A stretch of DNA of 63,868 nt from Gemmatimonadales bacterium (GTDB taxonomy: Bacteria > Gemmatimonadota > Gemmatimonadetes > Gemmatimonadales > GWC2-71-9). The stretch is from NCBI GenBank assembly GCA_035495075.1, contig DATJGL010000347.1:1-63868 (forward strand), given 5' to 3'. The notes beneath the pieces are model-generated. The model was given only the letters and a program-made list of their open reading frames with translations, did not search any database and was not told the origin of the DNA. Numbering within the stretch: the stretch's first letter is position 1; the number at the start of each line of letters is the position of its first letter. This document shows positions 18,134 through 37,375 of the stretch, piece after piece. The translations under genes were made by a program, and so were the position numbers.

Positions 18134-18709
18134 ATGCCGTTCTCAGGATCCGGAGCCACGCTGCTGCAGCGAGATCGCGCCATCGATCGGAACGACACGG
18201 ATGCCGTGGAGGCCGCCCTGGCCGCCAGCGGGGATGCCCACGCCTTCGAGCGCCTCTACCGCGCCCACGTGGGCCGGGTGCACTCCCTGGTGCGGCGCAT
18301 GTTGAACGACGAGGATGCCGACGAAGTCACTCAGGACGTGTTCGTGCGAGCCTGGCAGAAACTCGCCACCTATCGGGGCGAGGCCGCCTTCGGGACCTGG
18401 CTCCACCGACTCGCGGTCAACGTGATTCTGGGGCGCCGCCAGATGCTGGGTCAACGACGGGATCGGTTCCTCCCTGATGACACCGCGCTTGCCACCGTAT
18501 CGGCCGGACGTGGAGTCCCCGAGCTGTCGTTGGATTTCGAAACGGCCATTGCTCGGCTTCCCGATGGGGCTCGACAGGTGTTCGTGCTGCACGACGTCGA
18601 AGGCTATCGGCACGAGGAGATCGCGAACCTGCTGGGACTGGCGGTAGGCACCTCGAAGTCGCAGCTGCACCGGGCCCGCATGGCGCTGCGACGGCATCTC
18701 GACCCGTAA
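18134..18709 (+). CDS. ECF-type RNA polymerase sigma factor (sigma-70 regions 2 and 4)
   Basis: 191 aa. The region 2 motif is FERLYRAHVGRVHSLVRRML...DVTQDVFVRAW, and the region 4 motif is VFVLHDVEGYRHEEIANLLGLAVGTSKSQLHRAR. Confidence 0.88.
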   Translation: MPFSGSGATLLQRDRAIDRNDTDAVEAALAASGDAHAFERLYRAHVGRVHSLVRRMLNDEDADEVTQDVFVRAWQKLATYRGEAAFGTWLHRLAVNVILGRRQMLGQRRDRFLPDDTALATVSAGRGVPELSLDFETAIARLPDGARQVFVLHDVEGYRHEEIANLLGLAVGTSKSQLHRARMALRRHLDP

Positions 18710-18716
18710 TGGAGCG

Positions 18717-19424
18717 TTGCGCATGATGAGCGATCCCTGGGCGGCCCGGCTGTCGGACTATCTCGATGGCGAGCTCACCGACGCCGAAAGAAGCGCGTTG
18801 GAACGCCACCTGGACGCCTGCCCCAGCTGCACCGCGGCGTTGGAGGAGCTGAGCCACGTCATCGATCGCGCGCGCCGGCTCCCCGCCCGAGCGCCGCGAA
18901 GCGATCTGTGGCCCGGCATCGCGGCGCGGATCGGAGGCGAAGCGCCGGCAACACCCATCGCAGACGCACGCAAGACCCGACGTTGGAGCTTCTCGTTCCC
19001 GCAGCTCGCCGCGGCGTGCCTGGCCGCCGCGGCCGTCTCGGGGGGAGCTGTCTGGTTCGCCGCCGGCCACTTGGCGCCGACGGTTGCCCCCCTGCCGCCC
19101 GCGGCGCCTCAGCCGGTCGCTCTGTCGCCGGCCGGCCCGCTTGCAGCGCCGGCCGGGCAACCGGGGTCGGCGGAGCAGAAGTACGATGCAGCCGTCGCAG
19201 ACCTTCAGCGCGTGCTCAAGCAAGGCCGGGGCACGCTGGACACGACCACAGTGCGGGTGCTCGAGCGGAATCTGGCGCTCATCGACCGGGCCATCGCGGA
19301 CGCGCGTCGCGCCCTCGCCGCCGATCCCAGCAACAGCTACTTGAACGCCCACCTCGCGCGGACCATGCGCCGCAAGATTGACCTCCTCCGTCAAGCCGCC
19401 GACCTCGTGGCGGCCCGGAGCTGA
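18717..19424 (+). CDS. Anti-sigma factor (zf-HC2 type)
   Basis: The N-terminus has H-x3-C-x2-C (LERHLDACPSC). A central TM segment (AAACLAAAAVSGGAVWFAA) is present. It starts 8 nt after the sigma gene. Confidence 0.8.
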   Translation: MRMMSDPWAARLSDYLDGELTDAERSALERHLDACPSCTAALEELSHVIDRARRLPARAPRSDLWPGIAARIGGEAPATPIADARKTRRWSFSFPQLAAACLAAAAVSGGAVWFAAGHLAPTVAPLPPAAPQPVALSPAGPLAAPAGQPGSAEQKYDAAVADLQRVLKQGRGTLDTTTVRVLERNLALIDRAIADARRALAADPSNSYLNAHLARTMRRKIDLLRQAADLVAARS

Positions 19425-19438
19425 AAGGAGCCGATTTC

Positions 19439-20329
19439 GTGTTGCTTGTCCTGGCGTTGACCGCGACGCTGTTTACTTCCGATACCGACACCACCTTTAC
19501 GGTGCAGCGGGGTCAGCGGCTCGAGCTGAACACGCATGCCGGCGACATCGTCGTGCACACGTGGGCCCGCAACGCGGTCCGGGTGCAAACCTCGGGATCG
19601 AGCCGCTTCCACGTGGCCATCGACCAGACAGCGAGCCTCGTCAGCATCCACAGTGCAGGTGGACGCTCCGGGCCGCCCAACCTGGACTACCAGCTCACGG
19701 TTCCCACCTGGATGGCAATCCGTTTGTCCGGAGTTACAGCCGACATGCGTGTCGATGGTGTCCAGGGTCCGGTCAACGCAGAGACTGTGGAAGGGGACGT
19801 CGTCGTGGTCGGAGGCGACGGCCTCGTGTCGCTCCGATCGGTCCAGGGCGATGTGTCGTTGACCGATGCCAAAGGCAAGATCGACGTCAACTCGGTGAAC
19901 TCCGACGTGAACGTGCGCAACATCAGCGGCGAGCTGCAGGCCGAGACCGTCAACGGAGACGTCAATCTCATTCAGGTTCAATCGGACAACGTCGAAGCGA
20001 ACACCGTCAACGGCGACGTCAACTACGACGGCACCATTCGCGCGAACGGGCGCTATCGGCTGACCACCCACAACGGAGAAGTGACGGTGGTGATTCCCGA
20101 AGGGACCGGTGCCCAAGTGTCGGTTTCGACTTTCCAGGGAGACTTCGAATCTGCCTTCCCGGTGACGCTGACGGAGCGTCATGGGAGGCGCTTCGACTTC
20201 ACCGTCGGGAACGGAAGCGCGAGGATCGAGCTCGAGTCGTTCGGTGGGACGATCCGGCTGGTCAGACCCGGCGGACTTCACATCCAAGAAGAGGAGGGAA
20301 AGGAGAAGCATCGGGAGCACGACGAATAG
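19439..20329 (+). CDS. DUF4097-like beta-strand-repeat protein
   Basis: GTG start after AAAGGAG. It carries repeated V-x-G-D-V/VNGDVN strands typical of DUF4097 proteins found next to sigma/anti-sigma pairs. The C-terminus is acidic/basic (EEEGKEKHREHDE). Confidence 0.65.
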   Translation: MLLVLALTATLFTSDTDTTFTVQRGQRLELNTHAGDIVVHTWARNAVRVQTSGSSRFHVAIDQTASLVSIHSAGGRSGPPNLDYQLTVPTWMAIRLSGVTADMRVDGVQGPVNAETVEGDVVVVGGDGLVSLRSVQGDVSLTDAKGKIDVNSVNSDVNVRNISGELQAETVNGDVNLIQVQSDNVEANTVNGDVNYDGTIRANGRYRLTTHNGEVTVVIPEGTGAQVSVSTFQGDFESAFPVTLTERHGRRFDFTVGNGSARIELESFGGTIRLVRPGGLHIQEEEGKEKHREHDE

Positions 20330-20720
20330 GGTGCCGCCCAACGGGCAGACCCTATGCCGCAATTTGACAGAGAGCCGCCGGCGGGAGCCCGCCAATGCCG
20401 TTGCACTGTCTGGAATCTGTGCCCTATTCTAGCCGGCGGTTCGCTGGGCTCACACGCTAGCGGCCGTAGCCTGCCTGCAGGGGGGTTTCTCCGACCAAAA
20501 CCAACCCGCTAATGACCACCCCGAAGACCCAATTTGGCTTGCCAAAGCATTGGGATATAGGGTAGTACAGCTGCCCATTCCAGTCCGCTGCCCGATCAGC
20601 ACCGGCCAAGCCCCACCCCATCACCTGCCACCGCGATCCGCTGCAGCCAGACAAGTCTGCCGTATCGAACGGCCGCTCAACCGTTCAATTACCTGACATT
20701 CTGGCAAAATGTGTGATAGG

Positions 20721-20736
20721 TGGCACGCTCCTTGTT
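20721..20736 (+). promoter_or_regulatory. Candidate sigma-54 (-24/-12) promoter upstream of the fibre locus
   Basis: TGGCACGCTCCTTGTT matches TGGCACG-N4-TTGCW at 14 of 15 positions, with the -12 GC replaced by GT. It lies about 80 nt upstream of the subunit-1 ATG. There is no experimental support. Confidence 0.25.
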
Positions 20737-20813: not shown

Positions 20814-21380
20814 ATGAAGCTGTCAACGAAGGGTACGCTTCTGGGCGCGGTAGCTGCCATCCTGGTCGGAGTCAGCCCCGCAGTCGCCCAGGTCGGTCTC
20901 ACCTCGTCGCTCGCGACGGTGAACATCAACGCGACCAAGAGCTCGGTGCTGAGCCTCTTGATCAACTCGGGCGGCACCCAGACCCTGGCCAGCCTGACCG
21001 ACAACACCACCAACAACTTTGCCTCACCGGTCAACGTCACGACCACGTGGGATCTGAACGCCGGCAGCAATGTGGTGCTGGTCGGCTCGTTCGCCACCCC
21101 GGCTCAGGCGCTGGCGAGTGGGGCCAACTTCATCACCACGCAATACATCAAGGGTCGGGTGACCACCGGTACGCCGACCAGCTACACCGCGTTTACCCAG
21201 GCCGGCGTCGGCACGATCGGGACGGCGGGCGGCAGCCTCACGCTGTTCACCCAGAGCACGGCTTCGTTGGCGGGCAACCGTACCGACAACCTCGATCTCC
21301 AGATCGACCTGACCGGCCACGCCAACCTGATCCCAGGCACGTACACCGGCACGCTGAATCTTCAGGCGATCGTGCAGTAA
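20814..21380 (+). CDS. Secreted fibre subunit 1 (SCPU/DUF4402-like chaperone-usher pilin candidate)
   Basis: ATG 20814 follows GGAG. The signal peptide is AVAAILVGVSPAVA/Q. The protein is Thr/Ser/Gly/Asn-rich and Cys-free. The C-terminus is RTDNLDLQIDLTG..PGTYTGTLNLQAIVQ*. Confidence 0.7.
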   Translation: MKLSTKGTLLGAVAAILVGVSPAVAQVGLTSSLATVNINATKSSVLSLLINSGGTQTLASLTDNTTNNFASPVNVTTTWDLNAGSNVVLVGSFATPAQALASGANFITTQYIKGRVTTGTPTSYTAFTQAGVGTIGTAGGSLTLFTQSTASLAGNRTDNLDLQIDLTGHANLIPGTYTGTLNLQAIVQ

Positions 21381-21404
21381 AGGCGACGCTCGCCGGCGCC
21401 GCCC

Positions 21405-22007
21405 ATGACTCTCCACCGTCCCTGGCTCCGCTTGTTGCTCCTCACCGCCCTTGTGGCGGTGCCGGAGGAGCAGGCGGCTGCCCAGGCGGGGACTGTTTCG
21501 ACGGCGAGGATCGTCTCGCTGGCAGCGACCAAGACCGGCAAGCTGACGATGGGAGTAATCTCGGGCGCCGCACAGACGCTCGGGACGCTGACCGACAACA
21601 CAACGAACAACTTCCCAACTCCAGTCGTGATCCAAACCCAATGGGATCTGAACCCGGGACAAACGGGAAGCGTGAACGTGATCGGCTGGTTCGCGACGCC
21701 GAGCCAGGCGCTCACGAACGGGGTGGGCACCAACATCCCGTCCAGCCGGATGAAGGGGATGCTGACGCCAGGAGCACCAGCGCCAACCTCGTTTCCGGCG
21801 ACGTTCACAGCCTTCACCCAGAACGCGGTGGGGGGGATCGGGACGGCCGGCGGCAGCTTGCGGCTGTTCCAGATGAATATCTCGGGGGCCAACAAGACCC
21901 AGACCCGGACCGATAACCTGAGTCTGCAACTCGACTTGACCGGCGCGGGAGTGCTGCCGCCGGGAACGTACAGCGGGACCCTGAACATCGAGGCAGTGAC
22001 GCAGTAG
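21405..22007 (+). CDS. Secreted fibre subunit 2 (paralog)
   Basis: 200 aa with a signal peptide. It shares blocks with subunit 1 (LTDNTTNNF, WDLN, GWFATPSQAL, GGIGTAGGSLRLF). The C-terminus is RTDNLSLQLDLTG..PGTYSGTLNIEAVTQ*. Confidence 0.7.
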   Translation: MTLHRPWLRLLLLTALVAVPEEQAAAQAGTVSTARIVSLAATKTGKLTMGVISGAAQTLGTLTDNTTNNFPTPVVIQTQWDLNPGQTGSVNVIGWFATPSQALTNGVGTNIPSSRMKGMLTPGAPAPTSFPATFTAFTQNAVGGIGTAGGSLRLFQMNISGANKTQTRTDNLSLQLDLTGAGVLPPGTYSGTLNIEAVTQ

Positions 22008-22166
22008 GGCGCGCCAGGCGCGCGCCGCCCCGACGCTCAACCCGGGCGGGCGGGAGGTCGAAAGTAACCCTCAGCAAGGTGGTGCCCGGCGTAATCGATC
22101 CGGAGACAGCGGCGGTGGACGGCCTCAGCAATTGGCGGCCCTCTCAGCCGCGCCGTAGGTTGGAGC

Positions 22167-22745
22167 ATGTTGTCGGCCCGCTCGGTTCCTGTTCTCGCCG
22201 CCGCCATGCTGCTGGCGCCGGCGCTCCTTGCGCAAACCGGCGCAACCTCCCCGGTCCGGACGATTGCGATCTCGGCGACAAAGCTCGCCTCGGTCGGCAT
22301 CACGCTTCCAGCAGGCGGCTCTCTCACCCTGCCGGGCAGCTTGTCGAGCGGCATCAACGACTTCTCTCCACTCCCGTTCACGACTTCGTGGAGCGTCGAC
22401 CCCGCACAGACCGCGAGCGTGGCGGTCCTTGCGTTTTTTGAAGTGCCGGCGCGGGCCCTGGCCAATGGCGGCTCCGCGATCCCCTCGGCCGCGGTACTGG
22501 GACGAGTCGCGACCGGGGCCGCGAAAGGATTCTCTCCGTTCATCCACGCCTCGTTGACCGGGAACGGGGGGATGGTGGGATCGAGCGGAGGCTCGCTGCT
22601 CCTCCTGTTGGAGCCGATCGGCACCGGTAACGCACGGGGGGAACGAACCGATCAGCTCCAGCTGCGGGTCGACCTGAACGGATCGCCGTCACTTCCGGCC
22701 GGGACCTATGCCGGCACGCTCAACCTGGTGGCGGTCACTCAATGA
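22167..22745 (+). CDS. Secreted fibre subunit 3 (divergent paralog)
   Basis: 192 aa with the signal peptide AMLLAPALLA/Q. The C-terminus RTDQLQLRVDLNG..PAGTYAGTLNLVAVTQ* matches the same motif. Confidence 0.65.
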   Translation: MLSARSVPVLAAAMLLAPALLAQTGATSPVRTIAISATKLASVGITLPAGGSLTLPGSLSSGINDFSPLPFTTSWSVDPAQTASVAVLAFFEVPARALANGGSAIPSAAVLGRVATGAAKGFSPFIHASLTGNGGMVGSSGGSLLLLLEPIGTGNARGERTDQLQLRVDLNGSPSLPAGTYAGTLNLVAVTQ

Positions 22746-22751
22746 GGACCT

Positions 22752-23576
22752 ATGGGACGTACGGTGCTGTACTACATCGGAGGCCACCACCGCCGGGCTA
22801 GAGTCATCCTCGCTCTCGGCGCCATCGCGCTATTCCTTCCCACCGTCCTTCCCGCACAAAGCGTCAGCCCCCCGATAGCTGAGTACCAGGAGCGTGCCCG
22901 TTCGAGTGTCCAGCTGTCGAACGGCTCGATCTTCCCTCTCACCGTGGTCCTCGACGTCAACGGGTTCGACGTCACCGAGAAGGGCGAAGTCGTGGGGACC
23001 CCACTCGACACCGGGCGAGTGAAGATCAAGCTGTCGGCGACCAGCTTTCGCCTGGCGCCGCGCTCCACCTACACCGTGTTCTACGAAGCGCGCACCGACT
23101 CGCTGCCGGCATGGTTCGCAATCACCGCCGCCATGAGCGGTGCCCGAACCGACAACGGCCTCAATCTTCGCATCATTCTTCCGCACGTGGTGTATCTGAA
23201 TCAGAAACAGCCGCTGCAGAAGACAGAGGTCGTCGTCCGGCGGCTCGAGCTCGACTCAGCTGGTAAGACCGCACGGGTACAGCTGGAGAACTTGAGCTCC
23301 CACCTGGGGCGCGTGCTCGAGCTCACGATGACCGCGAAGGGACAGAGCCGGGCCGCTGGAGCCTTTCCGCTACTGCCCCACCATCGTCGCTGGGTCGAGG
23401 TCGCCTGGGATCTGGAACAGCCGCCGGAACGGGTAGCCCTCCGGTTCGCCAAGTTCTCCATCGACACGATGCTCGTTGCTACGCCAGCTGACCATCCGGC
23501 GAGTGAGAGCGCCCGGAGCTCCGATGCTCCTTCGAGCGGGATCGCCCGAGCACCCGCCAGCGCCGACGGTCGTTGA
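22752..23576 (+). CDS. Periplasmic PapD-like chaperone candidate
   Basis: 274 aa with a signal/anchor sequence. It has a two-beta-sandwich pattern reminiscent of pilus chaperones (SVQLSNGSIFPLTVVL; SFRLAPRSTYTVFY; LRIILPHVVYL; ARVQLENLSSHLGRV). It starts 6 nt after subunit 3. This is an inference from sequence pattern only. Confidence 0.5.
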   Translation: MGRTVLYYIGGHHRRARVILALGAIALFLPTVLPAQSVSPPIAEYQERARSSVQLSNGSIFPLTVVLDVNGFDVTEKGEVVGTPLDTGRVKIKLSATSFRLAPRSTYTVFYEARTDSLPAWFAITAAMSGARTDNGLNLRIILPHVVYLNQKQPLQKTEVVVRRLELDSAGKTARVQLENLSSHLGRVLELTMTAKGQSRAAGAFPLLPHHRRWVEVAWDLEQPPERVALRFAKFSIDTMLVATPADHPASESARSSDAPSSGIARAPASADGR

Positions 23577-25305
23577 GTCGCTGCGCCGGGGGTTGATCAG
23601 GGCGCTCGTCGCGAGCGCCCTGGCTGCTGTCGCACTCATCGTGGGGGCTCGTCCCGCATCCGCCCAAACCGTGTTCGAAGTCCAGGGCGGCGGCTCATCC
23701 CTCACCGGCGGCTATGGCGTGGCGACCAACGTCTGGCGGAACGGGGTCGAGGGTTGGGTCGGCCTTGGCTACCTCGACGGCCTTCGGCTGGGCGCGTTCA
23801 TGCGCAAGTCGATCGGCAAAGACACGCTCCGGATCGGCAACGACGCTCTGGTGGTCCGCTATCCCACCGACGTCTTCGGCAACGGGTACAACCTGCTGGT
23901 GCAGGGAGCCAGTTACGCTCGAACTCAGGGTCGCACCGGCTTCGTCGCCTTCGGGGGAGCAAGCTCGGAAGGACTGGCGGCTCCGGCATTCCTGGCTGCG
24001 AGGGCCCAGGCTCCAATGGGCGCGCTCTTCGTGCAGCACAGCCTGTCGCCGACGCTACGACTCAGCACGACGGCCATCGTGGCCGAACACCAGGCGGTAG
24101 TCCCAGGCATCCAGTGGCAGGCGACGCCAGACGTAACGGCGGCGCTGGTCGCGGGCACGGGGTCCGGACGACCCTACGGCGCCGCCAGCCTCGTAGCTCG
24201 CTCCGGGCGGTTCGGTTTCCGCGGTTCTTACGTCTACAACCCAAGCCGATTCCGGCGCGCTCCGGTCCCGGCACCGCTCCAAACCGACGTCGATCGCGAA
24301 AATCTCGAGGTCACCTATCAGCTGACGTCCGATTTTTCGATCGGTGTGGGGCGGCAGCATTTCATCCAGGACTCCGCCGACGTCGCGGTTCCGAGCCGCG
24401 CTTGGGGTAATTCGATCTTCCTGGGTGGCCGTACCGGTGAGCTGCGGATCTCAGCCGGCATTTATGACTCACACACGGACAGCGTGAGCAACCTGAGCTC
24501 GTTCGTCGCGCTCGGTCGCAATCTGGCCTCGTGGCTTGATGGCGAGCTCTTCGTCCTGCAGAGCCGCCCGCAAGGCCGCGCCGTGACCACCACGCCGATC
24601 TTGAGCCTGCGTGAGCGGGTTTCGCCCCGGGTCGGGCTGGTACAGCAGATCACGGTTGCAGAGGGCCGCCCCCGCGCACAGTTCGGCGGCAGTCTGCTCA
24701 CGGCGATTGGTGACTTCGCGCTGGACTACACGATCGTGCACCAGCCATTCCAGCCGTTCAGTCCTTTCCGCAGCGCGTTGAACATCACGGCAAGGCTTCA
24801 GCTCGGGCGCTACTCGACAAATCTGGGGACGTACGTCCAACCGGATGGTACGGTTGACTACGCTGCGTCGGGCAGCACGTTCCTATACATGGGTCAGCTG
24901 GGTGGAGTCCAGCCCCAGCGGGTTGGCAGCAATGGTGGCATTGCTCGATATGTCGTGCGCGGCCGGGTGCTCGATGAGGCTGGACAGCCGGTCGAGGGCG
25001 CCGCCATCGACTTCGACGGCGAGACCGTGTTCACCAACGCCCGAGGAGAGTTCCTGCTTCGGTTGCGGCAGCCTAGGCGTCTCGAGCCCCATGTGCTCCT
25101 GAACGAGTTCCTGCTGCCGGGCCGTTGGAGGGTGAACGCAGTTCCCGAACGGGTTCAGGCGCAACCGGAGGACCGGGCCCGTCCGGTGGAAATCCGACTC
25201 GAGCGGGCCGTGCCGATACCCGCGCTGCCGGATAGCATTCGTCCGGAACCGTCCGATACGCTGCTGCCGCTCGTGCCGCCCGGCGGTGAAGCTGCGAAAC
25301 CTTGA
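23524..25305 (+). CDS. Outer-membrane beta-barrel protein with C-terminal CarboxypepD_reg-like domain (usher candidate)
   Basis: The signal peptide is ALAAVALIVGARPASA/Q. About 440 aa have alternating Gly/aromatic beta-strand character. These are followed by YVVRGRVLDEAGQPVEGAAIDFDGETVFTNARGEFLL and a Pro-rich tail. The start is ambiguous: ATG 23524, TTG 23593, or the tracked 23476. Confidence 0.55.
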   Translation: MLLRAGSPEHPPAPTVVESLRRGLIRALVASALAAVALIVGARPASAQTVFEVQGGGSSLTGGYGVATNVWRNGVEGWVGLGYLDGLRLGAFMRKSIGKDTLRIGNDALVVRYPTDVFGNGYNLLVQGASYARTQGRTGFVAFGGASSEGLAAPAFLAARAQAPMGALFVQHSLSPTLRLSTTAIVAEHQAVVPGIQWQATPDVTAALVAGTGSGRPYGAASLVARSGRFGFRGSYVYNPSRFRRAPVPAPLQTDVDRENLEVTYQLTSDFSIGVGRQHFIQDSADVAVPSRAWGNSIFLGGRTGELRISAGIYDSHTDSVSNLSSFVALGRNLASWLDGELFVLQSRPQGRAVTTTPILSLRERVSPRVGLVQQITVAEGRPRAQFGGSLLTAIGDFALDYTIVHQPFQPFSPFRSALNITARLQLGRYSTNLGTYVQPDGTVDYAASGSTFLYMGQLGGVQPQRVGSNGGIARYVVRGRVLDEAGQPVEGAAIDFDGETVFTNARGEFLLRLRQPRRLEPHVLLNEFLLPGRWRVNAVPERVQAQPEDRARPVEIRLERAVPIPALPDSIRPEPSDTLLPLVPPGGEAAKP

Positions 25306-25325: not shown

Positions 25326-25766
25326 ATGTTCGGCCCCATGAACCCGGATGTGTTTACTGACTCGTGGGTCTCAGCCTGGGAACGGGAGCTCAACGCCAGC
25401 CTGGCCTACCGCGAGGCAGCAGCCGATTGGGAGGGCGCAGTGGCGCTCCGGATGAGCGCTGACGCCGCTCTCGGAATTCCTGAGCCCCGTGCGGTGTGGC
25501 TCGACTTGTATCACGGGCTCTGCCGCAGTGCGCGATCGGCGACCGATGCCGACCTCAGTACTGCAAGGTATCTGATCGAGGCCGAGGCGGCCGTCTGGAA
25601 GGAGTTGCTCGCCGGACGGCTCTCGCCCATCGCCGCGTTGTTGGCGGGAAAGCTTCGATTGGCGCAGGGGAGTCTGATGGGCCTTCTGCCCTACGCGGCA
25701 GCGGCTCAGTTGCTGGTTGCGACGGCGACGATCATCCAGCAGCAGTTCCCCGAGCCGGCGCTCTAG
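25326..25766 (+). CDS. SCP2 sterol-carrier-like domain protein
   Basis: ATG 25326 lies 8 nt after GGAGG. The C-terminus LLAGRLSPIAALLAGKLRLAQGSLMGLLPY is typical of SCP-2. The tracked TTG 25302 overlaps the upstream stop. Confidence 0.6.
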   Translation: MFGPMNPDVFTDSWVSAWERELNASLAYREAAADWEGAVALRMSADAALGIPEPRAVWLDLYHGLCRSARSATDADLSTARYLIEAEAAVWKELLAGRLSPIAALLAGKLRLAQGSLMGLLPYAAAAQLLVATATIIQQQFPEPAL

Positions 25767-25810
25767 CAGCACCACCCATAGCGCCGCAGCACTACTCCAT
25801 TAAGCAACGG

Positions 25811-25835
25811 GCGGCCGGTCATTTCGACCGGCCGC
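25811..25835. terminator. Perfect 10-bp GC-rich hairpin between SCP2 gene and tRNA-Pro
   Basis: GCGGCCGGTC-ATTTC-GACCGGCCGC. It lies 5 nt beyond the tRNA-Pro 3' end. There is no clear U-tract on either strand. Confidence 0.45.
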
Positions 25836-25840
25836 TCGAA

Positions 25841-25914
25841 TCGGGACGGCGGGATTTGAACCCGCGACCCGTGCAACCCCAGTGCAGTGCGCTACCGGAC
25901 TGCGCCACGTCCCG
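25841..25914 (-). tRNA. tRNA-Pro (anticodon GGG)
   Basis: Hand-folded cloverleaf. The acceptor stem is CGGGACG/CGTCCCG and the D stem is GCGC/GCGC. The anticodon loop is CTGGGGT with G37. The T arm is GCGGG-TTCAAAT-CCCGC and the discriminator is A. It is 74 nt long, and CCA is not encoded. Confidence 0.85.
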
Positions 25915-25972
25915 CGATGCGGAGGCGAAGTGTAGCCCTCGGTTGCACCGGACGGAAGGGGTATATTGCTGC

Positions 25973-27925
25973 ATGCATCGACGCCGCTTTCTCCTCGGCG
26001 CCGCCCGCACTGCCGCCTCTTTCGGAATTCTTCGTCAACTCGGCGGATGCCGCAGCATTACTCCGGCGGCGGGGAGCAGGCTCGCCTCACCGGGCGACGC
26101 TTTCACAGCGATTCGCGACCGCTACTTCCTTCGAGTCCTCCAGCTCTATCCCGTCACCTCGACTTACCTCGGCGGGGACGGCTATAACCCCGCGCTCGCA
26201 AGCGTAAGCGGCACGCTGCGCGATTGGTCGCCCGATGCTATCAAAGCCGAGGCGGCCTTCTACCGCGAGATCGAGCGTGGCCGACAGGCGATCGACCCGG
26301 CTCGGCTCGATCCTTCCGAGCGGATCGACCACACCGTGCTTGGCGCGCAGATCGGGTTTGCCCTGCGGCAACTGGAAGAGCGACGGTACTACGAGCGCGC
26401 CGTCGACACCTACATCGCAGAGCCCTTTCGCGGCATCGATTGGCAGCTCCAGCAGATGACCGCAGGGCGCGAGGGCCAGGGGGCGGAAGATGAATGGGCC
26501 CTGGTGGTAAAGCGGCTCGAAGCTATTCCGGCCTACCTCGCGACGGCGCGGGCCAACCTGCTGGCCGGTCGGCAAGCGGGCAATGTTCCTGATCGGCGAC
26601 TGGTGCAATACGACGGCATCGACGGGTCCGACGCCAACGAGCAATACTTTCGAACGACACTGCCCACCATGGCCGGAGGCTACTTGGGCCGTCGCCAGTT
26701 CGCGCCGCGGATGCTCGCCGGCGTCACCAAGGCGAGCACCGCCGCTGCCGCTGCGTTGCACGATTTTACCGCGTTCCTTCGCGGTACCTATGCTCTCTCG
26801 GACCAGACCGACCACTACGCCGCGGGCGAGGCAGAGTACGATTGGCGCCTGGCGCATTGCCTCCACGTGCGACGCTCCAGTGCCGAACTCTGGGAGTATG
26901 GCGCCCAGGAGGTCACGCTGTACGAAGACAAGCTCTACCAGGTCGCGAAGGAAGTGGCCAAGGCCGCCAAGCTCAGTCTGGACTTCGGAACCGAGGCCGC
27001 GCGTCGTGCCTCCGTCCGGGAGGTAATGCAACACCTTTCCAAGGATTCGCCGAAAAGCGACGACGAGCTGATCCAGTGGTATCGCGACGTCGCCGTTCGA
27101 GCGGTCGCCTATGGCCGCGAGCATCAGCTCTTCGACATTCCCACCGACTACCGACTGGATGTAGTTTTCACTCCGCCGGTACTGCGCAGCACACTCGACG
27201 CTGCGTACTATCCCGCCTCACCGTTCAAGCACAGCGGCGTCGGCCGCTTCTATCTGACGCCGACCGGGAACGACCCCGGTCAGCTGAAGGTCAATAACCG
27301 GGCATCCGTTGCGGATACGGCAATTCACGAGGGCTTCCCCGGACACGATTGGCACTACAAGTACATGACGGCGCATGCCGGCGACATCTCGAACATTCGC
27401 TGGCTGACGCCCGGAGCCGTGGAAGACTCGTCGTCCATGTGGGAAGACTCGATGGCCATCGAAGGCTGGGCGCTCTATGCCGAAGACCTGATGGCGGAAC
27501 CGCTGGACAGCAACGATCACGGCTTCTACACGGCGGCGGAGCACCTGTACGAGCTGCAGGGACAACTGCTCCGGGCCGCTCGCGTCCGAATCGATGTCGG
27601 CATCCACACGGGCCGGCTCAGCTTCGACCAGGCAGTGGACTATTTCACCGAACACGTGCAGTTCCATCCGGGGGCGTGCGCCCGTTCAGGTCACGACCCC
27701 GTCGCCAAGGCGCTGTGCGAGACCGCGACCCGCGCGGTCTACCGCTACTCCAAGTGGCCCACCCAGGCCGTCACCTACAACCTCGGCAAGAACGAGATCG
27801 TGGAGTTGCGGGAGCTGGCCCGGCAACGGGACGGCGCCGGCTTTTCGGCGCGGGCGTTTCACGAGCGGCTCATGCGAATGGGCACCATTCCCGTCGGGTA
27901 TTACCGAGACGAGTTCCTGGCCTGA
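25973..27925 (+). CDS. DUF885-family protein with Tat-like signal
   Basis: It starts MHRRRFLLGAARTAASFG (twin-arginine). It carries HEGFPGHDWHY and a C-terminal region typical of DUF885. The tracked ORF start at 25496 runs across the tRNA-Pro gene and is rejected. Confidence 0.75.
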   Translation: MHRRRFLLGAARTAASFGILRQLGGCRSITPAAGSRLASPGDAFTAIRDRYFLRVLQLYPVTSTYLGGDGYNPALASVSGTLRDWSPDAIKAEAAFYREIERGRQAIDPARLDPSERIDHTVLGAQIGFALRQLEERRYYERAVDTYIAEPFRGIDWQLQQMTAGREGQGAEDEWALVVKRLEAIPAYLATARANLLAGRQAGNVPDRRLVQYDGIDGSDANEQYFRTTLPTMAGGYLGRRQFAPRMLAGVTKASTAAAAALHDFTAFLRGTYALSDQTDHYAAGEAEYDWRLAHCLHVRRSSAELWEYGAQEVTLYEDKLYQVAKEVAKAAKLSLDFGTEAARRASVREVMQHLSKDSPKSDDELIQWYRDVAVRAVAYGREHQLFDIPTDYRLDVVFTPPVLRSTLDAAYYPASPFKHSGVGRFYLTPTGNDPGQLKVNNRASVADTAIHEGFPGHDWHYKYMTAHAGDISNIRWLTPGAVEDSSSMWEDSMAIEGWALYAEDLMAEPLDSNDHGFYTAAEHLYELQGQLLRAARVRIDVGIHTGRLSFDQAVDYFTEHVQFHPGACARSGHDPVAKALCETATRAVYRYSKWPTQAVTYNLGKNEIVELRELARQRDGAGFSARAFHERLMRMGTIPVGYYRDEFLA

Positions 27926-28436: not shown

Positions 28437-30614
28437 GTGACGACACGAACACCTCGACCTCACGCGTCGCTTCAGGCGCCGCCTCCGCCGCGGCGCGCGC
28501 CGGAGGAGGAGCTTCGTTCTGGTGAGGAGCGGCTCATGCTTGCGCTCCTGGGGACCGACGCGGGTCTCTGGGAGTGGAGCTACACCACCGGGGCTCGCTA
28601 TCTCGGTGATGCCTGGATCGGCCAGCTTGGCCATGAGCCGCGTGCCCTGGACGGCGATACCCACCTCCCTGCAGCTCTGGTTCATCCCCAAGATCTGCCC
28701 GTCGCGCACGCCCGACTGAAGGCGCATCTCGCCGGTGCCACTCCTTGGTACGAAGCCGACTATCGGCTCCGAACCAAGCGCGGCGAGTGGCGCTGGATCC
28801 ACGACCGGGGACGCGTGGTCGAGCGTGACGGGGAAGGGCGCCCGCTCCGGATGCTGGGGATGCCCACCGACATCACGGAGCGCAAGGAGGCCGAGGCGGC
28901 GCTCTTCCGGGAACGGGAGCGCGCCCTGGTTACGCTTGCGTCGATCGCGGACGCCGTGATCGCGACCGACAGCCGTGGCATGGTGGAGTATCTCAACCCG
29001 GTGGCGGAGCACTTTACGGGCTGGATCTTGGCGGAGGCGCGGGGGGAACCGCTCACCCGGGTCTTCACCGTCGTCCACGAGGCGACCCGCGAACCGGTCG
29101 AAACGTCGGCTGAGCGGTGCCTCGATGAGGACCGCGCGATGGGCGTTACCAGCCACTTCCTCTTGCTGCGCCGCGACGGAGTCGAATTCGCCATCGACGA
29201 GTCGGCTGCACCACTTCACGATCGGGATGGCCGGCTGACCGGCGTCGTCATCGTTTTCCGGGACACCACTCCGCAGCGCCAACTGACTCGCCAGCTCTCT
29301 CACCAAGCGACCCACGATCCGCTCACCGGCCTGATGAACCGCCGGGAGTTCGAGCGACGTCTCGCGCGCGTGGTCGCGAGCGCTCAGGGCTCGGATACGG
29401 CCCACGGTTTCTGTTATATCGACCTCGATCGCTTCAAGGCGGTCAACGATACCTGCGGTCACGTGGCGGGCGACGCCCTGCTGCGACAGCTGGCCGGGGT
29501 GTTGCGGGGCGAGCTCCGTGGCCGCGATACCCTGGCGCGGCTCGGCGGCGATGAGTTCGCCGTCCTGCTGGAACACTGCGATCTCGACCAGGCTCGGCGG
29601 ATCGCCGAGGCGCTCCGCGTGGCAGTGGAGAATTTCCGGTTCCTGTGGGAGGGGAACACGTTCACGCTGGGCGCCAGCATCGGCCTGGTGGAGATCAACC
29701 GGAGCTGCAACAGCGAAGCGGACGTCGTTCGCGCCGCGGACAAGGCCTGCTACCGGGCAAAGCATGCCGGAAGAAATCGGGTGCAGGTGGCGCGGCTGGA
29801 CGACATCACGACGTCGGACGCGGGCCACACCGACTGGGCGACTCGAATTACCCGAGCGCTGGAGGAAAGCCAGTTCCGGCTCTACGTCCAGCCGATCCTC
29901 CCGCTCGCCAGGACCGGCGTCGAGGAGGCGAGCTACTGGGAAGTATTCCTGCGACTTGAGGATGCCGACGCGGGGCTGCTGCCGGCCGGTGCATTCCTGC
30001 CGGCCGCCGAGCGCTACAGCCTGATGTCGGTGATCGATCAATGGGTTGTTCGGGAGACCATCGCCCGTCTGGGGGGTTGGCGTCCGCAGGCCGGCCAGCG
30101 AGTGCCACCGTGCTGCGTCAATCTCGGCCGCGAATCGGTGCGGGACGAGGCGCTGATAGGACTGATCCGCGAGCAGCTGCAGGGCGACCGCCTGGCGCCG
30201 GGCACGCTGTGCTTCGAGATCAACGAGCAGGCGGTCCTAGCGGACCTGGGCCAAGCCGTTTCCTTCGCGCGGTCGCTCCGCGAGCTGGGTTGTCGGGTGG
30301 CGCTGGACGACTTTGCCGGTGGGCTCTCCTCGCTCCACTACCTGAAGGCCCTGCCGCTCGACCTTCTCAAGCTGAGCGCGACTGTGACTCGCGACCTGGG
30401 TACCGATCCGTTGCAGGATGTTGTCGCGCGGGCGGCGGCTCAGGCAGGCCGCGTGCTGGGTATTCCGATCGTCGCCAAAGGCGCGGACAACCCCGCCGCA
30501 CTGGGGGCGTTGCGGGCGCTTGGAATTGACTACGCCCAGGGATTCGCACTGGCCGCCCCGCGCCCTATCGAAGACCTGATCGCGGAGGCGGGCGCGTCCT
30601 GCCCGCTGCGCTGA
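28437..30614 (+). CDS. PAS-PAS-GGDEF-EAL signalling protein (diguanylate cyclase; EAL domain apparently degenerate)
   Basis: 725 aa with two PAS/PAC units. The GGDEF domain has an RGRD I-site 5 residues upstream of GGDEF. The EAL domain reads EVFLR, EINE, DDFAGG, KLS and AKGAD at consensus positions. It has a GTG start. Confidence 0.85.
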   Translation: MTTRTPRPHASLQAPPPPRRAPEEELRSGEERLMLALLGTDAGLWEWSYTTGARYLGDAWIGQLGHEPRALDGDTHLPAALVHPQDLPVAHARLKAHLAGATPWYEADYRLRTKRGEWRWIHDRGRVVERDGEGRPLRMLGMPTDITERKEAEAALFRERERALVTLASIADAVIATDSRGMVEYLNPVAEHFTGWILAEARGEPLTRVFTVVHEATREPVETSAERCLDEDRAMGVTSHFLLLRRDGVEFAIDESAAPLHDRDGRLTGVVIVFRDTTPQRQLTRQLSHQATHDPLTGLMNRREFERRLARVVASAQGSDTAHGFCYIDLDRFKAVNDTCGHVAGDALLRQLAGVLRGELRGRDTLARLGGDEFAVLLEHCDLDQARRIAEALRVAVENFRFLWEGNTFTLGASIGLVEINRSCNSEADVVRAADKACYRAKHAGRNRVQVARLDDITTSDAGHTDWATRITRALEESQFRLYVQPILPLARTGVEEASYWEVFLRLEDADAGLLPAGAFLPAAERYSLMSVIDQWVVRETIARLGGWRPQAGQRVPPCCVNLGRESVRDEALIGLIREQLQGDRLAPGTLCFEINEQAVLADLGQAVSFARSLRELGCRVALDDFAGGLSSLHYLKALPLDLLKLSATVTRDLGTDPLQDVVARAAAQAGRVLGIPIVAKGADNPAALGALRALGIDYAQGFALAAPRPIEDLIAEAGASCPLR

Positions 30615-30636: not shown

Positions 30637-32613
30637 ATGCGCCTCGTTGCCGCCGCGCTACTCACACTGACGCTGATCGGTTGCAGCTCCGAGCCGGTGT
30701 CGCCCGATCTTGTTCCGGTGGCCAGCGTGACGTTGGAGCCGGCCGCCCCAGTCGTCGGTGTCGGCAAGACAGCTCCGCTGACAGCCACGACCAAGGGCCA
30801 GGATGGAACCGTCCTTCCCAACCGCACGATCACTTACGCGAGCGCCAACACCGCGATCGCAACGGTTGACGACCATGGGGTCGCCACCGGTGTCGCCGCC
30901 GGGTCCACTCAGATCACCGCCACATCAGAGGGCAAGAGCGGCTCGGTCACGCTGACGGTGAGCACCACTCCGGTTGCATCCGTGAAGGTGTCGCCGTCGA
31001 CTGCCTCGCTGAACGTGGGGGCCAACCTCACGCTTGTCGGCTCGGCCTTCGATGCCGGCAGCGCCCCGCTCCCCGGCCGGGTCTTCGCCTGGAGCTCCGC
31101 CAACGCGGCGATCGCCACGGTCTCGACCCTGGGTGTGGTCCACGGAATGGCAGCAGGGACTGTGACAGTCACGGGCACGTCCGAAGGCAAGAGCGCGACG
31201 GCGACTATCACGGTCATCGTGCCGCCGGTCGCGAGCGTGACCGTGACGCCCAATCCCGCGACCGTGGGATTGGGCGACTCGCTGCAGCTCACCGCGACGC
31301 TCAAGGACGGGAGCGGCAACGTCCTGACCGGGCGGGCCGTGGCCTGGCAGAGCTCCAACTCCGTCCTGGCGAGCGTCAGCAACACCGGCCTGGTGCGGGC
31401 TCTCGCCGCCGGCGACGCGACCATCACCGCAACGTCCGAAGGCAAGAGCGGAACGTCAGCAATCGGGTCGCGGCTCCGGTTCACCACGATCAGTGCCGGG
31501 CAAGACTTCACCTGCGGCGTGACACCGGTGCACACGGTCTACTGCTGGGGCCGAAACACCGAGGGCGAGCTGGGTGACGGGACGACGACGGACCGCTTAA
31601 CGCCCGTCGCCGCGAAAATCCCGTTGGGCGTTTCGATCGACTCGGTGAGTGCGGGCCAGGACCACGCCTGCGCGCTGAGCACCAGCTTCAAGGTGTTCTG
31701 CTGGGGCGCCAACGTCTTCGGGCAGCTCGGCAGCGGATTCGCGACTCCGCCGCAGTCGACGCCAGGGCTCATTGCGTCTTCCGGGCTCAACTTTGCCTCA
31801 ATCAGCGCAGCGGCGCAGTTCACCTGCGGAGTCACCACGACCAATGTGGGATTTTGCTGGGGGGTCAATCAGAACGGCCAGCTCGGCAGCGGGATAAATG
31901 CCGGCACCACGACGCCTAACCCTGACACCGTTTCAGTATTGGGCGGGCCGTTCAGGGCAATGAGTGCAACCCAGGGACATGCCTGTGGCCTCCTGTTCGG
32001 CGGCGGCCCGGACGGAACGGTGACTTGTTGGGGGCTCAACGATGCCGGACAACTCGGGCGCGGAGGCGGCGCCAGTCCGCCGTTCGACCAGAACCCGCTG
32101 CCGATTTTCGGCTCCGTTCGCTACGCGGCCGTAAGCGGTGGCTTCCGGTTCACCTGCGCCATTCGAAACGACGGCACCGGTGCGGCCGATTGCTGGGGAC
32201 TGAACGACTTCGGCCAACTGGGAACCAGCACCCTTAGTCCCCTGGTCCAGTCGAGCCCCGTGGCCGTCGCGCAGCCTCCGGCGAGCTTCGCCCAGGTCTC
32301 AGCCGGGCGACAGCTGGCCTGCGGCGTGACGCCTCTCGGCGAGGGTTTCTGTTGGGGCGATAACACCTTCGGTCAGCTCGGGATCGGCAGCGGCGTGGCG
32401 GTTCCCACCCCGCCGCAGCCTCAGGCCGTCAGCGGGAACCTTGTGTTCGCCGAGATGGCGGCCGGATATGCCCATGCCTGCGGCGTCACGACAACCAAGG
32501 TCGCGTGGTGCTGGGGTCGTGCGGAGGACGGGGCACATCCGGGTGCGAGTGCGCTGGGCAACGGCGGGACCAGCCCGAGCAATGTGCCGGTGGAGGTGAA
32601 GGGGCAACAGTAA
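30637..32613 (+). CDS. Lipoprotein with four Big_2 Ig-like domains and a seven-bladed RCC1-like propeller
   Basis: The lipobox is LTLIGC. Four repeats of about 85 aa end in ITATSEGKSG..T.TV. They are followed by seven (F/Y/W)CWG-x-N-x-x-GQLG blades. Confidence 0.8.
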   Translation: MRLVAAALLTLTLIGCSSEPVSPDLVPVASVTLEPAAPVVGVGKTAPLTATTKGQDGTVLPNRTITYASANTAIATVDDHGVATGVAAGSTQITATSEGKSGSVTLTVSTTPVASVKVSPSTASLNVGANLTLVGSAFDAGSAPLPGRVFAWSSANAAIATVSTLGVVHGMAAGTVTVTGTSEGKSATATITVIVPPVASVTVTPNPATVGLGDSLQLTATLKDGSGNVLTGRAVAWQSSNSVLASVSNTGLVRALAAGDATITATSEGKSGTSAIGSRLRFTTISAGQDFTCGVTPVHTVYCWGRNTEGELGDGTTTDRLTPVAAKIPLGVSIDSVSAGQDHACALSTSFKVFCWGANVFGQLGSGFATPPQSTPGLIASSGLNFASISAAAQFTCGVTTTNVGFCWGVNQNGQLGSGINAGTTTPNPDTVSVLGGPFRAMSATQGHACGLLFGGGPDGTVTCWGLNDAGQLGRGGGASPPFDQNPLPIFGSVRYAAVSGGFRFTCAIRNDGTGAADCWGLNDFGQLGTSTLSPLVQSSPVAVAQPPASFAQVSAGRQLACGVTPLGEGFCWGDNTFGQLGIGSGVAVPTPPQPQAVSGNLVFAEMAAGYAHACGVTTTKVAWCWGRAEDGAHPGASALGNGGTSPSNVPVEVKGQQ

Positions 32614-35425: not shown

Positions 35426-37375
35426 TCAGGACTTGAGGGAGACCCGCTGGACTATGGGACCACGCTGACTGGAGGCGAAGGTCGCGTTACCACTGTAGCA
35501 CGCAAAGATGGAGTGGCTACCCACGCTCAGGCTCTTCGTCGAAAAGCTGGCCTCGCTTACGAAGGCGTCGCCGGTTGGCTTGAGCGTCCCGCTGCCCAGC
35601 TTGTTACCGCTGCAGGAATTCTCCCGAAAGTCCACAGTGCCCGTCGCTACCCCATTGAGAGCCTGGAGCGTCGCCGTAAAGGTGACGGTCTGGCCAACCA
35701 CCGAGCCGAACGGAAGGCTCGACGTCAGCGTCACGACCAGAGTCGGCACCAGATCGATGCGATGAGTCTGATTGCCGGAGCTGGGCTCGAAGGTGGCATC
35801 GCCGGAATATTTCGCGGTGAAGGTCTTATTCCCCGCCGTGGCCGGGGTGATCGTGCACCCGCCCTGGGACACGGGGGCGGAGCATGTCTGGCTGCCATCG
35901 CTCACGCTCACCGTACCGGTCGGCGTGCCGGATCCCGATGCGCTCACCGCGAAGCCCACGGTTACCGGCTCGAGGGCCGTGGAGCTTTGAGGGTTGAAGC
36001 TCCGGACCGTCGTGGTGGTGCCTGCCCGCTGCGCCTGGACGGTTGCTCGATCGTCCAGCGTGACACCGTTGGCTTGCGCCGATATGGTATAGCTCTTGGC
36101 AGCAGACGCACCGAAGGTGAAGGTCGCAACCCCGTTCCCGTTCGTCGCACTCGACGTGGGCGTGAAATTGCTTCCGCCGGGATCGCTCGACGAGGGAACG
36201 ACCGTCGCGCCAGTGATGAGATTGCCCTGCCCGTCTCGGACCGTCACCGTGATCGTGCTCCGGTTCCCAAAGACGATGATGGTGGTGGGGTCTGCTGCAA
36301 GGCTCGACCGTGACGCGCTGACTGCGCCGGTGTGGAGATCAATGGCATCAGATACCACGGGTTCCACGCCCTGCCCACTGAAGCGAAGGGTGTAGCTACC
36401 CGGCGGTCCGTTGATGCCGAGACCGCTGAAACTGGCAAGACCGTTCGCATCGGTCTGCTTCGTGTGATCGCCGGCAAGCGTCGCGGCCGGTCCGCTTCCA
36501 AGGTCCACGGTCACGCTGAAGCCCTGCTGGTGTACCGCGTTGCCCAGGTTGTCGCGCAACTGGATCTGTGGTTGTCGAGCGAGGGTTGCCCCCGCGGACG
36601 CAACCGCCGCCGGCTGGGTGATAATCGCCAGCGTCGCCGCGCTACCCGCGGCAGCCGTCGCCATGAAGTTGATCGGTGAGCCGGGCACATTGCCGGCGCT
36701 CGCTACAGTGGTTTGGGCACCCGCGGCTGGCCCCAACGTGCGGCGTACCGCGGCTCGCCCATCTGGGCCGGTAGCGACCTGGTCGGCGCTCACACTCCCG
36801 CCACCGTTGACCGACCAGTTCACCAAGAGCCCGATCACCGCGTTTCCACTCGCGTCGAGCGCGCGCACCACCAGCGAATCGGGCAACACCGAGCCGGCCG
36901 GCGCCCGCTGATTGTTTCCCTCGACGAGAGCAAAGGTCGCAACCGAACCGGGAGAGGCAGTGGCGGTGAACGACGCCTTGAGCTGGTCATTGCCGACCAG
37001 CCTGGCCTGGGCGGTTTGGGATCCGGCCTGCGATCCCAACGTCCAGCGGGCAGCCACCCGACCATTGTTGTCAGTGACGCCGGTGTCGGGAGTAATCGAT
37101 CCCCCGGCGGTCGGCGTCGTGAGCACGAAGGCAACCCGGATCTGCGGGATCGGCACTCGACGCGCATCGGTCACTTGAACGACGAGCGACTCCGGGAGAG
37201 TTCCGCCAACGATCGCGGTTTGGCTGTTGCCCTGAATTGGAACGAGAGCGGCGGGTTGGTTCTCGGCGGGCAAGGTCAACTCACCCGCATTGCAGGCGAG
37301 CGCGAGCGGAAGCACTCCCCAGATCGCCAGGGAGAGATCTGTGAAACCATGCCAACGACGAGCCATAGCGGCCAC
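35426..37375 (-). CDS. Surface lipoprotein A: Big_1/invasin-like repeats + Ig-like group-3 repeats
   Basis: The lipobox is PLALAC. The N-terminal repeats follow the pattern G-x-x-Q-x-A-x-x-G-x-LP-x-x-L-V-V-x-V-x-D...WTLG. The C-terminal repeats have GTPTGTVSVSDGSQTC...YSGDATF. The start is GTG 37375 or ATG 37366. Confidence 0.8.
   Translation of the reverse strand: MAAMARRWHGFTDLSLAIWGVLPLALACNAGELTLPAENQPAALVPIQGNSQTAIVGGTLPESLVVQVTDARRVPIPQIRVAFVLTTPTAGGSITPDTGVTDNNGRVAARWTLGSQAGSQTAQARLVGNDQLKASFTATASPGSVATFALVEGNNQRAPAGSVLPDSLVVRALDASGNAVIGLLVNWSVNGGGSVSADQVATGPDGRAAVRRTLGPAAGAQTTVASAGNVPGSPINFMATAAAGSAATLAIITQPAAVASAGATLARQPQIQLRDNLGNAVHQQGFSVTVDLGSGPAATLAGDHTKQTDANGLASFSGLGINGPPGSYTLRFSGQGVEPVVSDAIDLHTGAVSASRSSLAADPTTIIVFGNRSTITVTVRDGQGNLITGATVVPSSSDPGGSNFTPTSSATNGNGVATFTFGASAAKSYTISAQANGVTLDDRATVQAQRAGTTTTVRSFNPQSSTALEPVTVGFAVSASGSGTPTGTVSVSDGSQTCSAPVSQGGCTITPATAGNKTFTAKYSGDATFEPSSGNQTHRIDLVPTLVVTLTSSLPFGSVVGQTVTFTATLQALNGVATGTVDFRENSCSGNKLGSGTLKPTGDAFVSEASFSTKSLSVGSHSIFACYSGNATFASSQRGPIVQRVSLKS

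Follow-up and report, generated by a model that had tools for sequence, protein, structure and literature searches.

The window analysed here is a 63,868-bp contig from a metagenome-assembled genome (MAG) of a soil bacterium of the Gemmatimonadales, and all coordinates refer to it. Between positions 20814 and 25305 it carries five genes on the plus strand, here called g1 to g5, which an earlier note had picked out as a fibre locus resembling those of the chaperone-usher (CU) pathway. Sequence comparisons and structural models suggest that this operon is an unannotated but conserved, divergent variant of the CU pathway, in which the outer-membrane component would be a minimal usher. The genes and the features predicted in their products are listed below (aa, amino acids; ORF, open reading frame).

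20814..21380, + strand: g1, secreted subunit paralogue 1, 188 aa; an ORF within a longer one that opens at 20709
20889-20939, + strand: conserved N-terminal extension of g1 (residues 26-42), following a predicted signal peptide (residues 1-25)
21405..22007, + strand: g2, secreted subunit paralogue 2, 200 aa; N-terminal extension at about residues 27-43 (21483-21533)
22167..22745, + strand: g3, secreted subunit paralogue 3, 192 aa; N-terminal extension at about residues 23-39 (22233-22283)
22752..23576, + strand: g4, periplasmic two-beta-domain chaperone candidate, 274 aa; signal peptide at about residues 1-35
23157-23201, + strand: candidate G1-like donor strand of g4 (residues 136-150), GLNLRIILPHVVYLN
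23524..25305, + strand: g5, usher-like outer-membrane protein, 593 aa; signal peptide at residues 1-48 (23524-23667)
23671-24804, + strand: 24-strand barrel of g5 (residues 50-427), from an AlphaFold2 model and DSSP
24808-24945, + strand: conserved, unmodelled segment of g5 (residues 429-474)
24949-25206, + strand: C-terminal CarboxypepD_reg-like beta-sandwich of g5 (residues 476-561)

The genes are as tightly spaced as had been described. The gaps between g1 and g2, g2 and g3, and g3 and g4 are exactly 24, 159 and 6 nucleotides (nt), and the spacing of g4 and g5 depends on the start codon assigned to g5. The g5 ORF opens at 23476; NCBI places the start codon at 23524, an ATG that GGAG precedes by 6 nt, which gives a 53-nt overlap with g4, and an alternative TTG start at 23593 would leave a gap of 16 nt. 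Genes g1 to g4 share one reading frame, probably by coincidence. All five proteins have signal-peptide-like N-termini ending in A-x-A/Q, none contains a cysteine, and no lipobox was found in any of them.

A scan of species-representative genomes yielded 65 loci, all in Gemmatimonadales/Gemmatimonadota MAGs, and in 54 of these one or more subunit genes were found together with g4 and g5. As each of the five proteins also has hundreds of homologues, the locus is not a chance arrangement. A g1-type gene was present in essentially all complete related loci, and the third, g3-type subunit is optional (about 21 of the 54). In the Gemmatimonadaceae locus L058 the order is subunit, g4, subunit, subunit, pore. 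Five remote relatives of g4 all lie within the same three-part module (GC content 51-54% in the three with DNA), and two of the remote pores, when compared with g5, gave an HHalign probability of 99.4% with 26% identity over the full length; the barrel is thus no generic porin placed there by chance. The barrel gene is strictly syntenic, within one operon, with the subunit and chaperone-candidate genes in the 54 loci and in the five remote contexts, which answers the earlier concern that this linkage might break down in other genomes. In the remote loci L069 and L070 a conserved secreted protein of 460-490 aa is encoded directly upstream of the subunit gene (1160-2632 and 4996-6378, respectively); the two proteins are 34% identical to each other and belong to no Pfam family, and a gene for a phage-type integrase is found close to each locus. 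This protein could be an adhesin or an accessory component of that subgroup. In a second Gemmatimonadaceae locus, L065 (4378-8700), several operon genes are broken by frameshifts, probably through long-read assembly error rather than pseudogenisation, and the locus was unusable.

The protein encoded by g5 was modelled with AlphaFold2 from an alignment of 61 sequences (mean predicted local distance difference test score, pLDDT, of 72.6). In the model the signal peptide is followed directly by 24 beta-strands (residues 50-427, assigned with DSSP; pLDDT mostly 80-95), then by a 45-residue segment with a pLDDT of 25-30 (residues 429-474) and by a beta-sandwich (residues 476-561). Usher barrels also have 24 strands. 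In a Foldseek search of the PDB, the best 14 matches to the model were all FimD or PapC ushers (E 4.8e-12 to 3.2e-6; template modelling (TM) scores 0.34-0.46), followed among non-usher barrels by Occ/OprD-type porins (from 5e-6) and LptD (1.6e-5). The model thus supports the view that g5 is usher-like by fold and is not a generic porin.

All described ushers have five domains: an N-terminal domain, the barrel, a plug and two C-terminal domains (CTD1 and CTD2). In g5 the first strand begins 2 residues past the predicted cleavage site (ASAQ/TV), and no usher-type periplasmic N-terminal domain is found; remote pores of the g5 type, at 541-606 aa, have no room for one either. The plug would be expected between strands 6 and 7. 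Strand 6 (122-135) is joined to strand 7 (138-147) by a tight 2-residue turn, so that g5 has no plug insert, and the longest barrel loops in the model are of about 15 residues. Beyond the barrel a single beta-sandwich was modelled, compared with two in ushers. These features agree with the earlier picture of a signal-peptide-bearing barrel protein of roughly 590 aa with a CarboxypepD_reg-like end and an accessory domain unlike that of classical ushers; the shortfall of about 250 aa relative to the latter is explained by the missing N-terminal domain and plug insert.

The match of the Pfam family CarboxypepD_reg to g5 was below threshold (E 4e-5, residues 494-533 of the 609-aa ORF), and many g5 homologues passed the threshold. 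A faint match to CooC_C, the C-terminal domain of CS1-type ushers, covered the same stretch (E 0.08), and comparison of the g5 C-terminal region with the CTD2 region of FimD by HHalign was not significant (P ~0.01-0.035). An extra C-terminal OmpA domain, which the window copy lacks, was present in 39 of 120 g5 homologues among the matches listed (720-795 aa, e.g. P0017-P0019); these fusions indicate that the C-terminus of the pore is in the periplasm, as in ushers. Conservation was 0.76 in the post-barrel segment, 0.72 in the barrel and 0.69 in the C-terminal domain. The post-barrel segment contains the motif YAASGSTFLY and has 14 invariant positions in the 61-sequence alignment. Being at least as conserved as the barrel, it is not a mere linker, and residues 429-474 are a candidate gate or docking element; gating or docking may have been taken over by this segment or by the C-terminal sandwich.

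The chaperone candidate g4 was modelled together with g3. Because g1 to g4 lie in one reading frame, read-through could be used as a fusion (g3-GP-g4), with the g4 signal peptide as linker; the alignment was assembled block-wise from genuine homologue rows (MAFFT), with 42 subunit and 23 g4 homologues. The resulting model had a mean pLDDT of 62. It gave g4, a signal-peptide-bearing periplasmic protein, two immunoglobulin (Ig)-like beta-sandwich domains, as in the PapD-like chaperones of about 25 kDa; domain 1 (residues ~60-130) was of low confidence (pLDDT 41-74) and domain 2 (residues 160-240) had a pLDDT of 83-91. The Foldseek list obtained with the fusion was enriched in CU proteins. For g4 the top 40 matches included CsuC (2.6e-3), EcpB, YadV, CfaA and CupB2 (E 2.6e-3 to 5e-2), with CfaA having the best per-target TM-score (0.44). 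These E-values are weak, as is to be expected when the query is fused and partly disordered.

Sequence profiles of g4 also pointed to CU chaperones. An exhaustive HMMER search (E up to 1e-3) placed the g4 family at 428 clusters at 50% identity. Comparison of a g4 profile with FimC alone, or of a g5 profile with FimD alone, found nothing, which for the low-diversity profiles (effective number of sequences, Neff, about 2) was uninformative; the g4-family profile found no relevant chain among PDB sequences. A diverse alignment of 76 members (Neff 5.2) was compared with CU reference profiles built from E. coli K-12 operons and two plasmids. With signal peptides included, HHalign against the 11 chaperones of this set gave a probability of 87.8% (P 3.3e-6), the co-linear match extending over 192 columns, and a further comparison gave P 1.9e-4. 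As a yardstick, alternative and classical CU chaperones matched each other at P 1.4e-6. Reversed profiles gave P 0.06-0.08 and unrelated family pairs P 0.002-0.35 over short stretches, and it was solely against CU chaperones that the g4 profile rose above these controls; P was 1.6e-4 against alternative-class and 0.015 against classical chaperones. The near-invariant g4 residues N57, N180 and P209 aligned with the CU-invariant N60, N180 and P205, and GLNLRIILPHVVYL of g4 aligned with the G1 donor strand of FimC, NTLQLAIISRIKLY. The most conserved 10-residue block of g4 (residues 141-150) lies within this candidate G1 strand. Its pLDDT is ~41, as might be expected of an edge strand that becomes ordered only on partner binding. 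These data point to a weak homology, and we consider it probable, with moderate confidence, that g4 is a remote homologue of PapD-like chaperones, in keeping with its earlier description as a periplasmic protein resembling PapD-type two-domain chaperones.

The products of g1 to g3 are three paralogous, Cys-free secreted proteins, as the earlier note had stated. The g2 and g3 proteins are 51% and 39% identical to g1, all three share the C-terminal motif PGTYxGTLNLxAVTQ, and T, S, G, N and A together make up 50-56% of their residues. At 90% identity the subunit family comprises more than 1,100 clusters and the pores more than 580. In the fused model the core of g3 (residues 60-192) is a beta-sandwich with a pLDDT of 74-89, and residues 1-40 are below 50. 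Approximately the first 17 residues of the mature subunits are conserved, carry alternating hydrophobics and end in A-T-K; they lie outside the predicted fold (pLDDT < 30). At the other end, a C-terminal G-x-Y-x-G-x-hydrophobic-x-hydrophobic strand is kept even in remote subunit relatives. An N-terminal extension outside the fold, a beta-sandwich core and a conserved C-terminal strand are traits that would fit CU pilins. Fold matches of the subunit model were weak and comprised FimG, FimF, the PapG pilin domain, CfaB, PapA and CupE1 (Foldseek E 6e-3 to 7e-2), and comparison of subunit profiles with 14-16 pilins was not significant (HHalign probability below 8%).

Upstream of the operon lie a candidate promoter and three genes assigned by Pfam (ECF, extracytoplasmic function).

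18134-18709, + strand: ECF sigma factor
18717-19424, + strand: zf-HC2 anti-sigma factor
19439-20329, + strand: DUF4097 'toastrack' protein
20721..20735, + strand: sigma-54-like -24/-12 element TGGCAC-GCTCC-TTGT, ~80 nt upstream of the g1 start, candidate operon promoter

Of 31 close loci, 21 have the pattern TGGCAY-N5-TTGT at a distance of 80-180 nt upstream of g1 (0.07 expected from shuffles), and it was absent from the other 10 and from remote loci; its -12 part is always TTGT, not the canonical TTGC. A sigma-54-like promoter ahead of g1 is the probable start of transcription in this sub-clade. A consensus promoter and terminator scan of the locus found nothing above chance. The ECF sigma/zf-HC2/DUF4097 trio lies directly upstream in ~40 Gemmatimonadales loci and is absent in L058 and in remote loci, and its functional link to the operon is uncertain. 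Downstream, the single match in an Rfam scan of the locus was a tRNA-Pro(GGG) at 25841-25914 (- strand), which falls within the 5' part of a long ORF (25496-27925); the real start of this DUF885 gene is therefore probably near 26003. A PAS-GGDEF-EAL protein of cyclic di-GMP (c-di-GMP) signalling is encoded at 28437-30614 (+ strand), 3 kb downstream of the operon, and GGDEF-EAL and PilZ genes likewise occur on either side of the remote locus L067 (1-2356 and 12012-12602); c-di-GMP genes near both operons hint at biofilm-type regulation. Nearby genes also encode two large proteins of surface type that contain bacterial Ig-like domains (30637-32613, + strand; 35426-37375, - strand), one combining Big_2 with RCC1 repeats and the other Big_1 and Big_3_5 with CarboxypepD_reg.

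CU pili are a textbook model of energy-independent secretion and polymerisation. We interpret the locus as encoding a deeply divergent, reduced CU-type system that would assemble or secrete a surface fibre or coat, and assign this reading a probability of roughly 0.6. The products of g1, g2 and, where present, g3 would be exported by Sec and held in the periplasm by g4, acting as a two-Ig-like-domain chaperone. The g4-bound subunits would be delivered to g5, cross the outer membrane through its 24-stranded usher-like barrel and probably polymerise there by donor-strand exchange, the N-terminal extension of one subunit inserting into the next. On this scheme g5 would be a minimal usher with neither an N-terminal recruitment domain nor a plug, so that gating and chaperone docking would fall to the 45-residue segment and the periplasmic C-terminal sandwich; in about one-third of the homologues among the matches listed, the OmpA domain would tether this sandwich to peptidoglycan.

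Several results weigh against this interpretation. Scans with Pfam and NCBIfam were silent on g1 to g4 and gave no Usher match on g5. The family models through which the earlier note proposed to recognise the system, SCPU (PF05229), DUF4402 (PF14352), PapD_N (PF00345), PapD_C (PF02753) and Usher (PF00577), together with Fimbrial (PF00419), matched none of the locus proteins; among 42 members of the subunit family SCPU, DUF4402 and Fimbrial likewise found no match at E up to 1, and PapD_N/C found none among 76 g4-family members at E up to 0.1. No PDB chain was found with subunit profiles at E up to 10, or with g5-family profiles. Pore profiles compared with FimD and with 5-7 ushers reached HHalign probabilities of 1.5% or less, and profile comparisons thus detected no sequence relationship between g5 and ushers. 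The structural evidence has limits as well: TM-scores of g5 to ushers are only 0.34-0.46, the best fold match of g4 is the WxLIP protein 9i1y_B (E 4.2e-4) and not a CU chaperone, and the fused model shows no confident interface between g3 and g4 (predicted TM-score 0.39), with no donor-strand complementation recovered. When mature parts only were compared, the HHalign match of g4 to CU chaperones was modest (39.7%, P 3e-4, 163 columns). Pro59 of CsuC, in strand D1, is the sole residue invariant across the CU superfamily (PMC4654587). At the corresponding position (FimC Pro88, precursor numbering) g4 has Ala96 in a low-identity HHalign alignment, and the g4-family consensus there, LSxxS, contains no proline. 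With no plug, a 24-strand barrel would leave a hole in the membrane if nothing else gated it, and the gate proposed for g5 is itself putative. Finally, the case for a fibre is computational throughout, the system being known here from genes and models.

Some of these observations would fit a different product. It is possible, although clearly less probable than fibre assembly, that g5 acts as an usher-like exporter and g4 as an escort in the periplasm, with g1 to g3 released or displayed as monomers or as a non-covalent coat, so that the locus would serve small-protein secretion or a surface coat and not a pilus. The fused model without donor-strand complementation and the weakness of the pilin fold matches (E no better than 6e-3) are compatible with this, as is the lack in g5 of the N-terminal domain and plug, which organise the classical polymerisation cycle. 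It is also favoured by the lack of a two-domain tip adhesin, which bears out the earlier remark that a tip-adhesin gene is missing, and of any obvious terminator subunit at the locus. A monomeric product would, however, leave the conserved N-terminal extension with its alternating hydrophobics hard to explain. Moreover, two or three paralogous subunits per operon are typical of heteropolymeric fibres, and no part of g4 is better conserved than the putative G1-like strand. We regard it as improbable, more so than a monomeric product, that the resemblance to CU systems is convergent or superficial, with g5 serving as a large channel for solutes or polymers, g4 as a generic periplasmic Ig-like adaptor and g1 to g3 as periplasmic or envelope proteins, the module being controlled by the ECF sigma, anti-sigma and DUF4097 genes. 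Neither pore nor subunits can be linked by sequence to any CU family, any large barrel will match other barrels in Foldseek (as g5 does at ranks 15-50), the best g4 fold match is not a chaperone, and the ECF module is co-located in ~40 loci. Yet the E-values of ushers were better by about six orders of magnitude than those of any other class of barrel, and the number of strands matches that of ushers; L058 and all five remote loci keep the three-part module although they lack the ECF genes; and the g4 profile exceeded the controls against CU chaperones and nothing else.

Very improbable, in our estimate, is that the operon is an ordinary member of the archaic (sigma) class, of the Csu, CupE or Myxococcus spore-coat-U type, that has drifted beyond the reach of hidden Markov models (HMMs). 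The order of subunits, chaperone and pore and the Cys-free subunits do resemble this class, CsuC and CupE1 are among the fold matches, and the archaic class is phylogenetically the most widespread (PMC4654587). However, the SCPU, PapD_N/C and Usher models missed all members tested, the pore lacks the N-terminal domain, plug and second C-terminal domain common to all described ushers, the CU-invariant chaperone proline is not conserved, and there is no two-domain adhesin. A search of plasmids for an archaic CU operon, by way of distant EcpC matches, returned alternative-class systems only, so that the test for the sigma class rests on the Pfam models. Membership of the archaic/sigma class, or of any other class described so far, is not demonstrable for the locus, since the N-terminal domain, the plug, matches to the family HMMs and the invariant proline were all sought and not found.

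If the operon does encode a reduced CU-type system, a well-known surface-fibre pathway would gain a reduced class in little-studied phyla. A further proposal, to which we give slightly less than even odds, is that it is the founding example of a fourth, deep-branching CU class, in which the usher is a bare 24-strand barrel with one C-terminal domain, gated and loaded by the conserved post-barrel segment. Such a class would represent either an ancestral minimal usher or an independent reduction, and would show which of the usher domains can be dispensed with in donor-strand-exchange polymerisation; the g4 family spans Gemmatimonadota and lineages of 51-54% GC. A natural system with a 24-strand barrel and a PapD-like chaperone, and with neither N-terminal domain nor plug, would test which steps of the usher cycle need those domains, and would bear on the evolution of the CU pathway. 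It would also extend CU-type fibres to Gemmatimonadota, a soil phylum that is abundant but poorly understood, and to further uncultured lineages, and would give a function to three large families of "hypothetical proteins", namely the subunits, the g4 family and the pores. We found no description in the literature of such a system in Gemmatimonadota, nor of a plug-less usher.

Comparison with known systems set several candidates aside. The cyanobacterial CT pilus was rejected as a relative on account of its different fold and gene set, Type V (Bacteroidota) pili because no protein has a lipobox cysteine, and curli/Fap-type amyloid systems because repeats are absent and the barrel is of the wrong type. 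WxLIP proteins (DUF916/DUF3324) of Gram-positive WxL clusters, which bind partner surface proteins (PMC10599100), share with g4 a two-beta-domain architecture and provide its top fold match. In contrast to the window operon, they belong to Gram-positive bacteria with no outer membrane or usher-like partner and occur in an unrelated genomic context, and none of 76 g4 relatives matched DUF916 or DUF3324.

The archaic class offers a parallel in organisation. Csu of Acinetobacter baumannii, CupE of Pseudomonas aeruginosa and the Myxococcus spore-coat-U system (Mcu) have the same order of subunits, chaperone and pore as the window, and in archaic systems, as here, several Cys-free paralogues serve as subunits, with an extension at the N-terminus and a G-x-Y-...hydrophobic strand at the C-terminus. 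The class is distributed widely beyond enteric bacteria (PMC4654587), and CsuC and CupE1 recur among the window's fold matches. The archaic/sigma analogy drawn earlier therefore holds for gene order and for the absence of cysteine from the subunits, but not as a specific link: the window lacks any SCPU, DUF4402, PapD or Usher sequence signature and a CsuE-like two-domain adhesin, and g5 is ~250-285 aa shorter, with no N-terminal domain or plug and with one C-terminal domain instead of two. The published distribution of CU systems covers Proteobacteria, Cyanobacteria and Deinococcus-Thermus (PMC4654587); the Gemmatimonadota host is not among these phyla, so that the locus does lie outside the usual proteobacterial context, as had been supposed.

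The alternative class (CFA/I, CS1 and the E. coli common pilus, Ecp) is nearer to g4 in sequence than the classical class (P 1.6e-4 versus 0.015), and it is also the source of CfaA (TM 0.44) and of the faint CooC_C match on g5. Its ushers, unlike g5, keep the N-terminal and plug domains, and neither the pore nor the subunits have a significant sequence match to it. The classical Fim and Pap systems, to which sequence identity is ~10%, differ in that their ushers have the N-terminal domain, plug and second C-terminal domain missing from g5, their pilins a conserved disulfide that the subunits, with zero cysteines, cannot form, and their chaperones an Arg8/Lys112 carboxylate-anchoring pair that was not identified in g4; their Pfam models are silent on the locus. 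At the level of fold and architecture there are likenesses: FimG, FimF and PapA weakly resemble the g3 model, g4 aligns co-linearly with FimC over both domains, including the position of the G1 strand and three invariant residues, and FimD and PapC, with 24 strands like g5, are its best structural matches.

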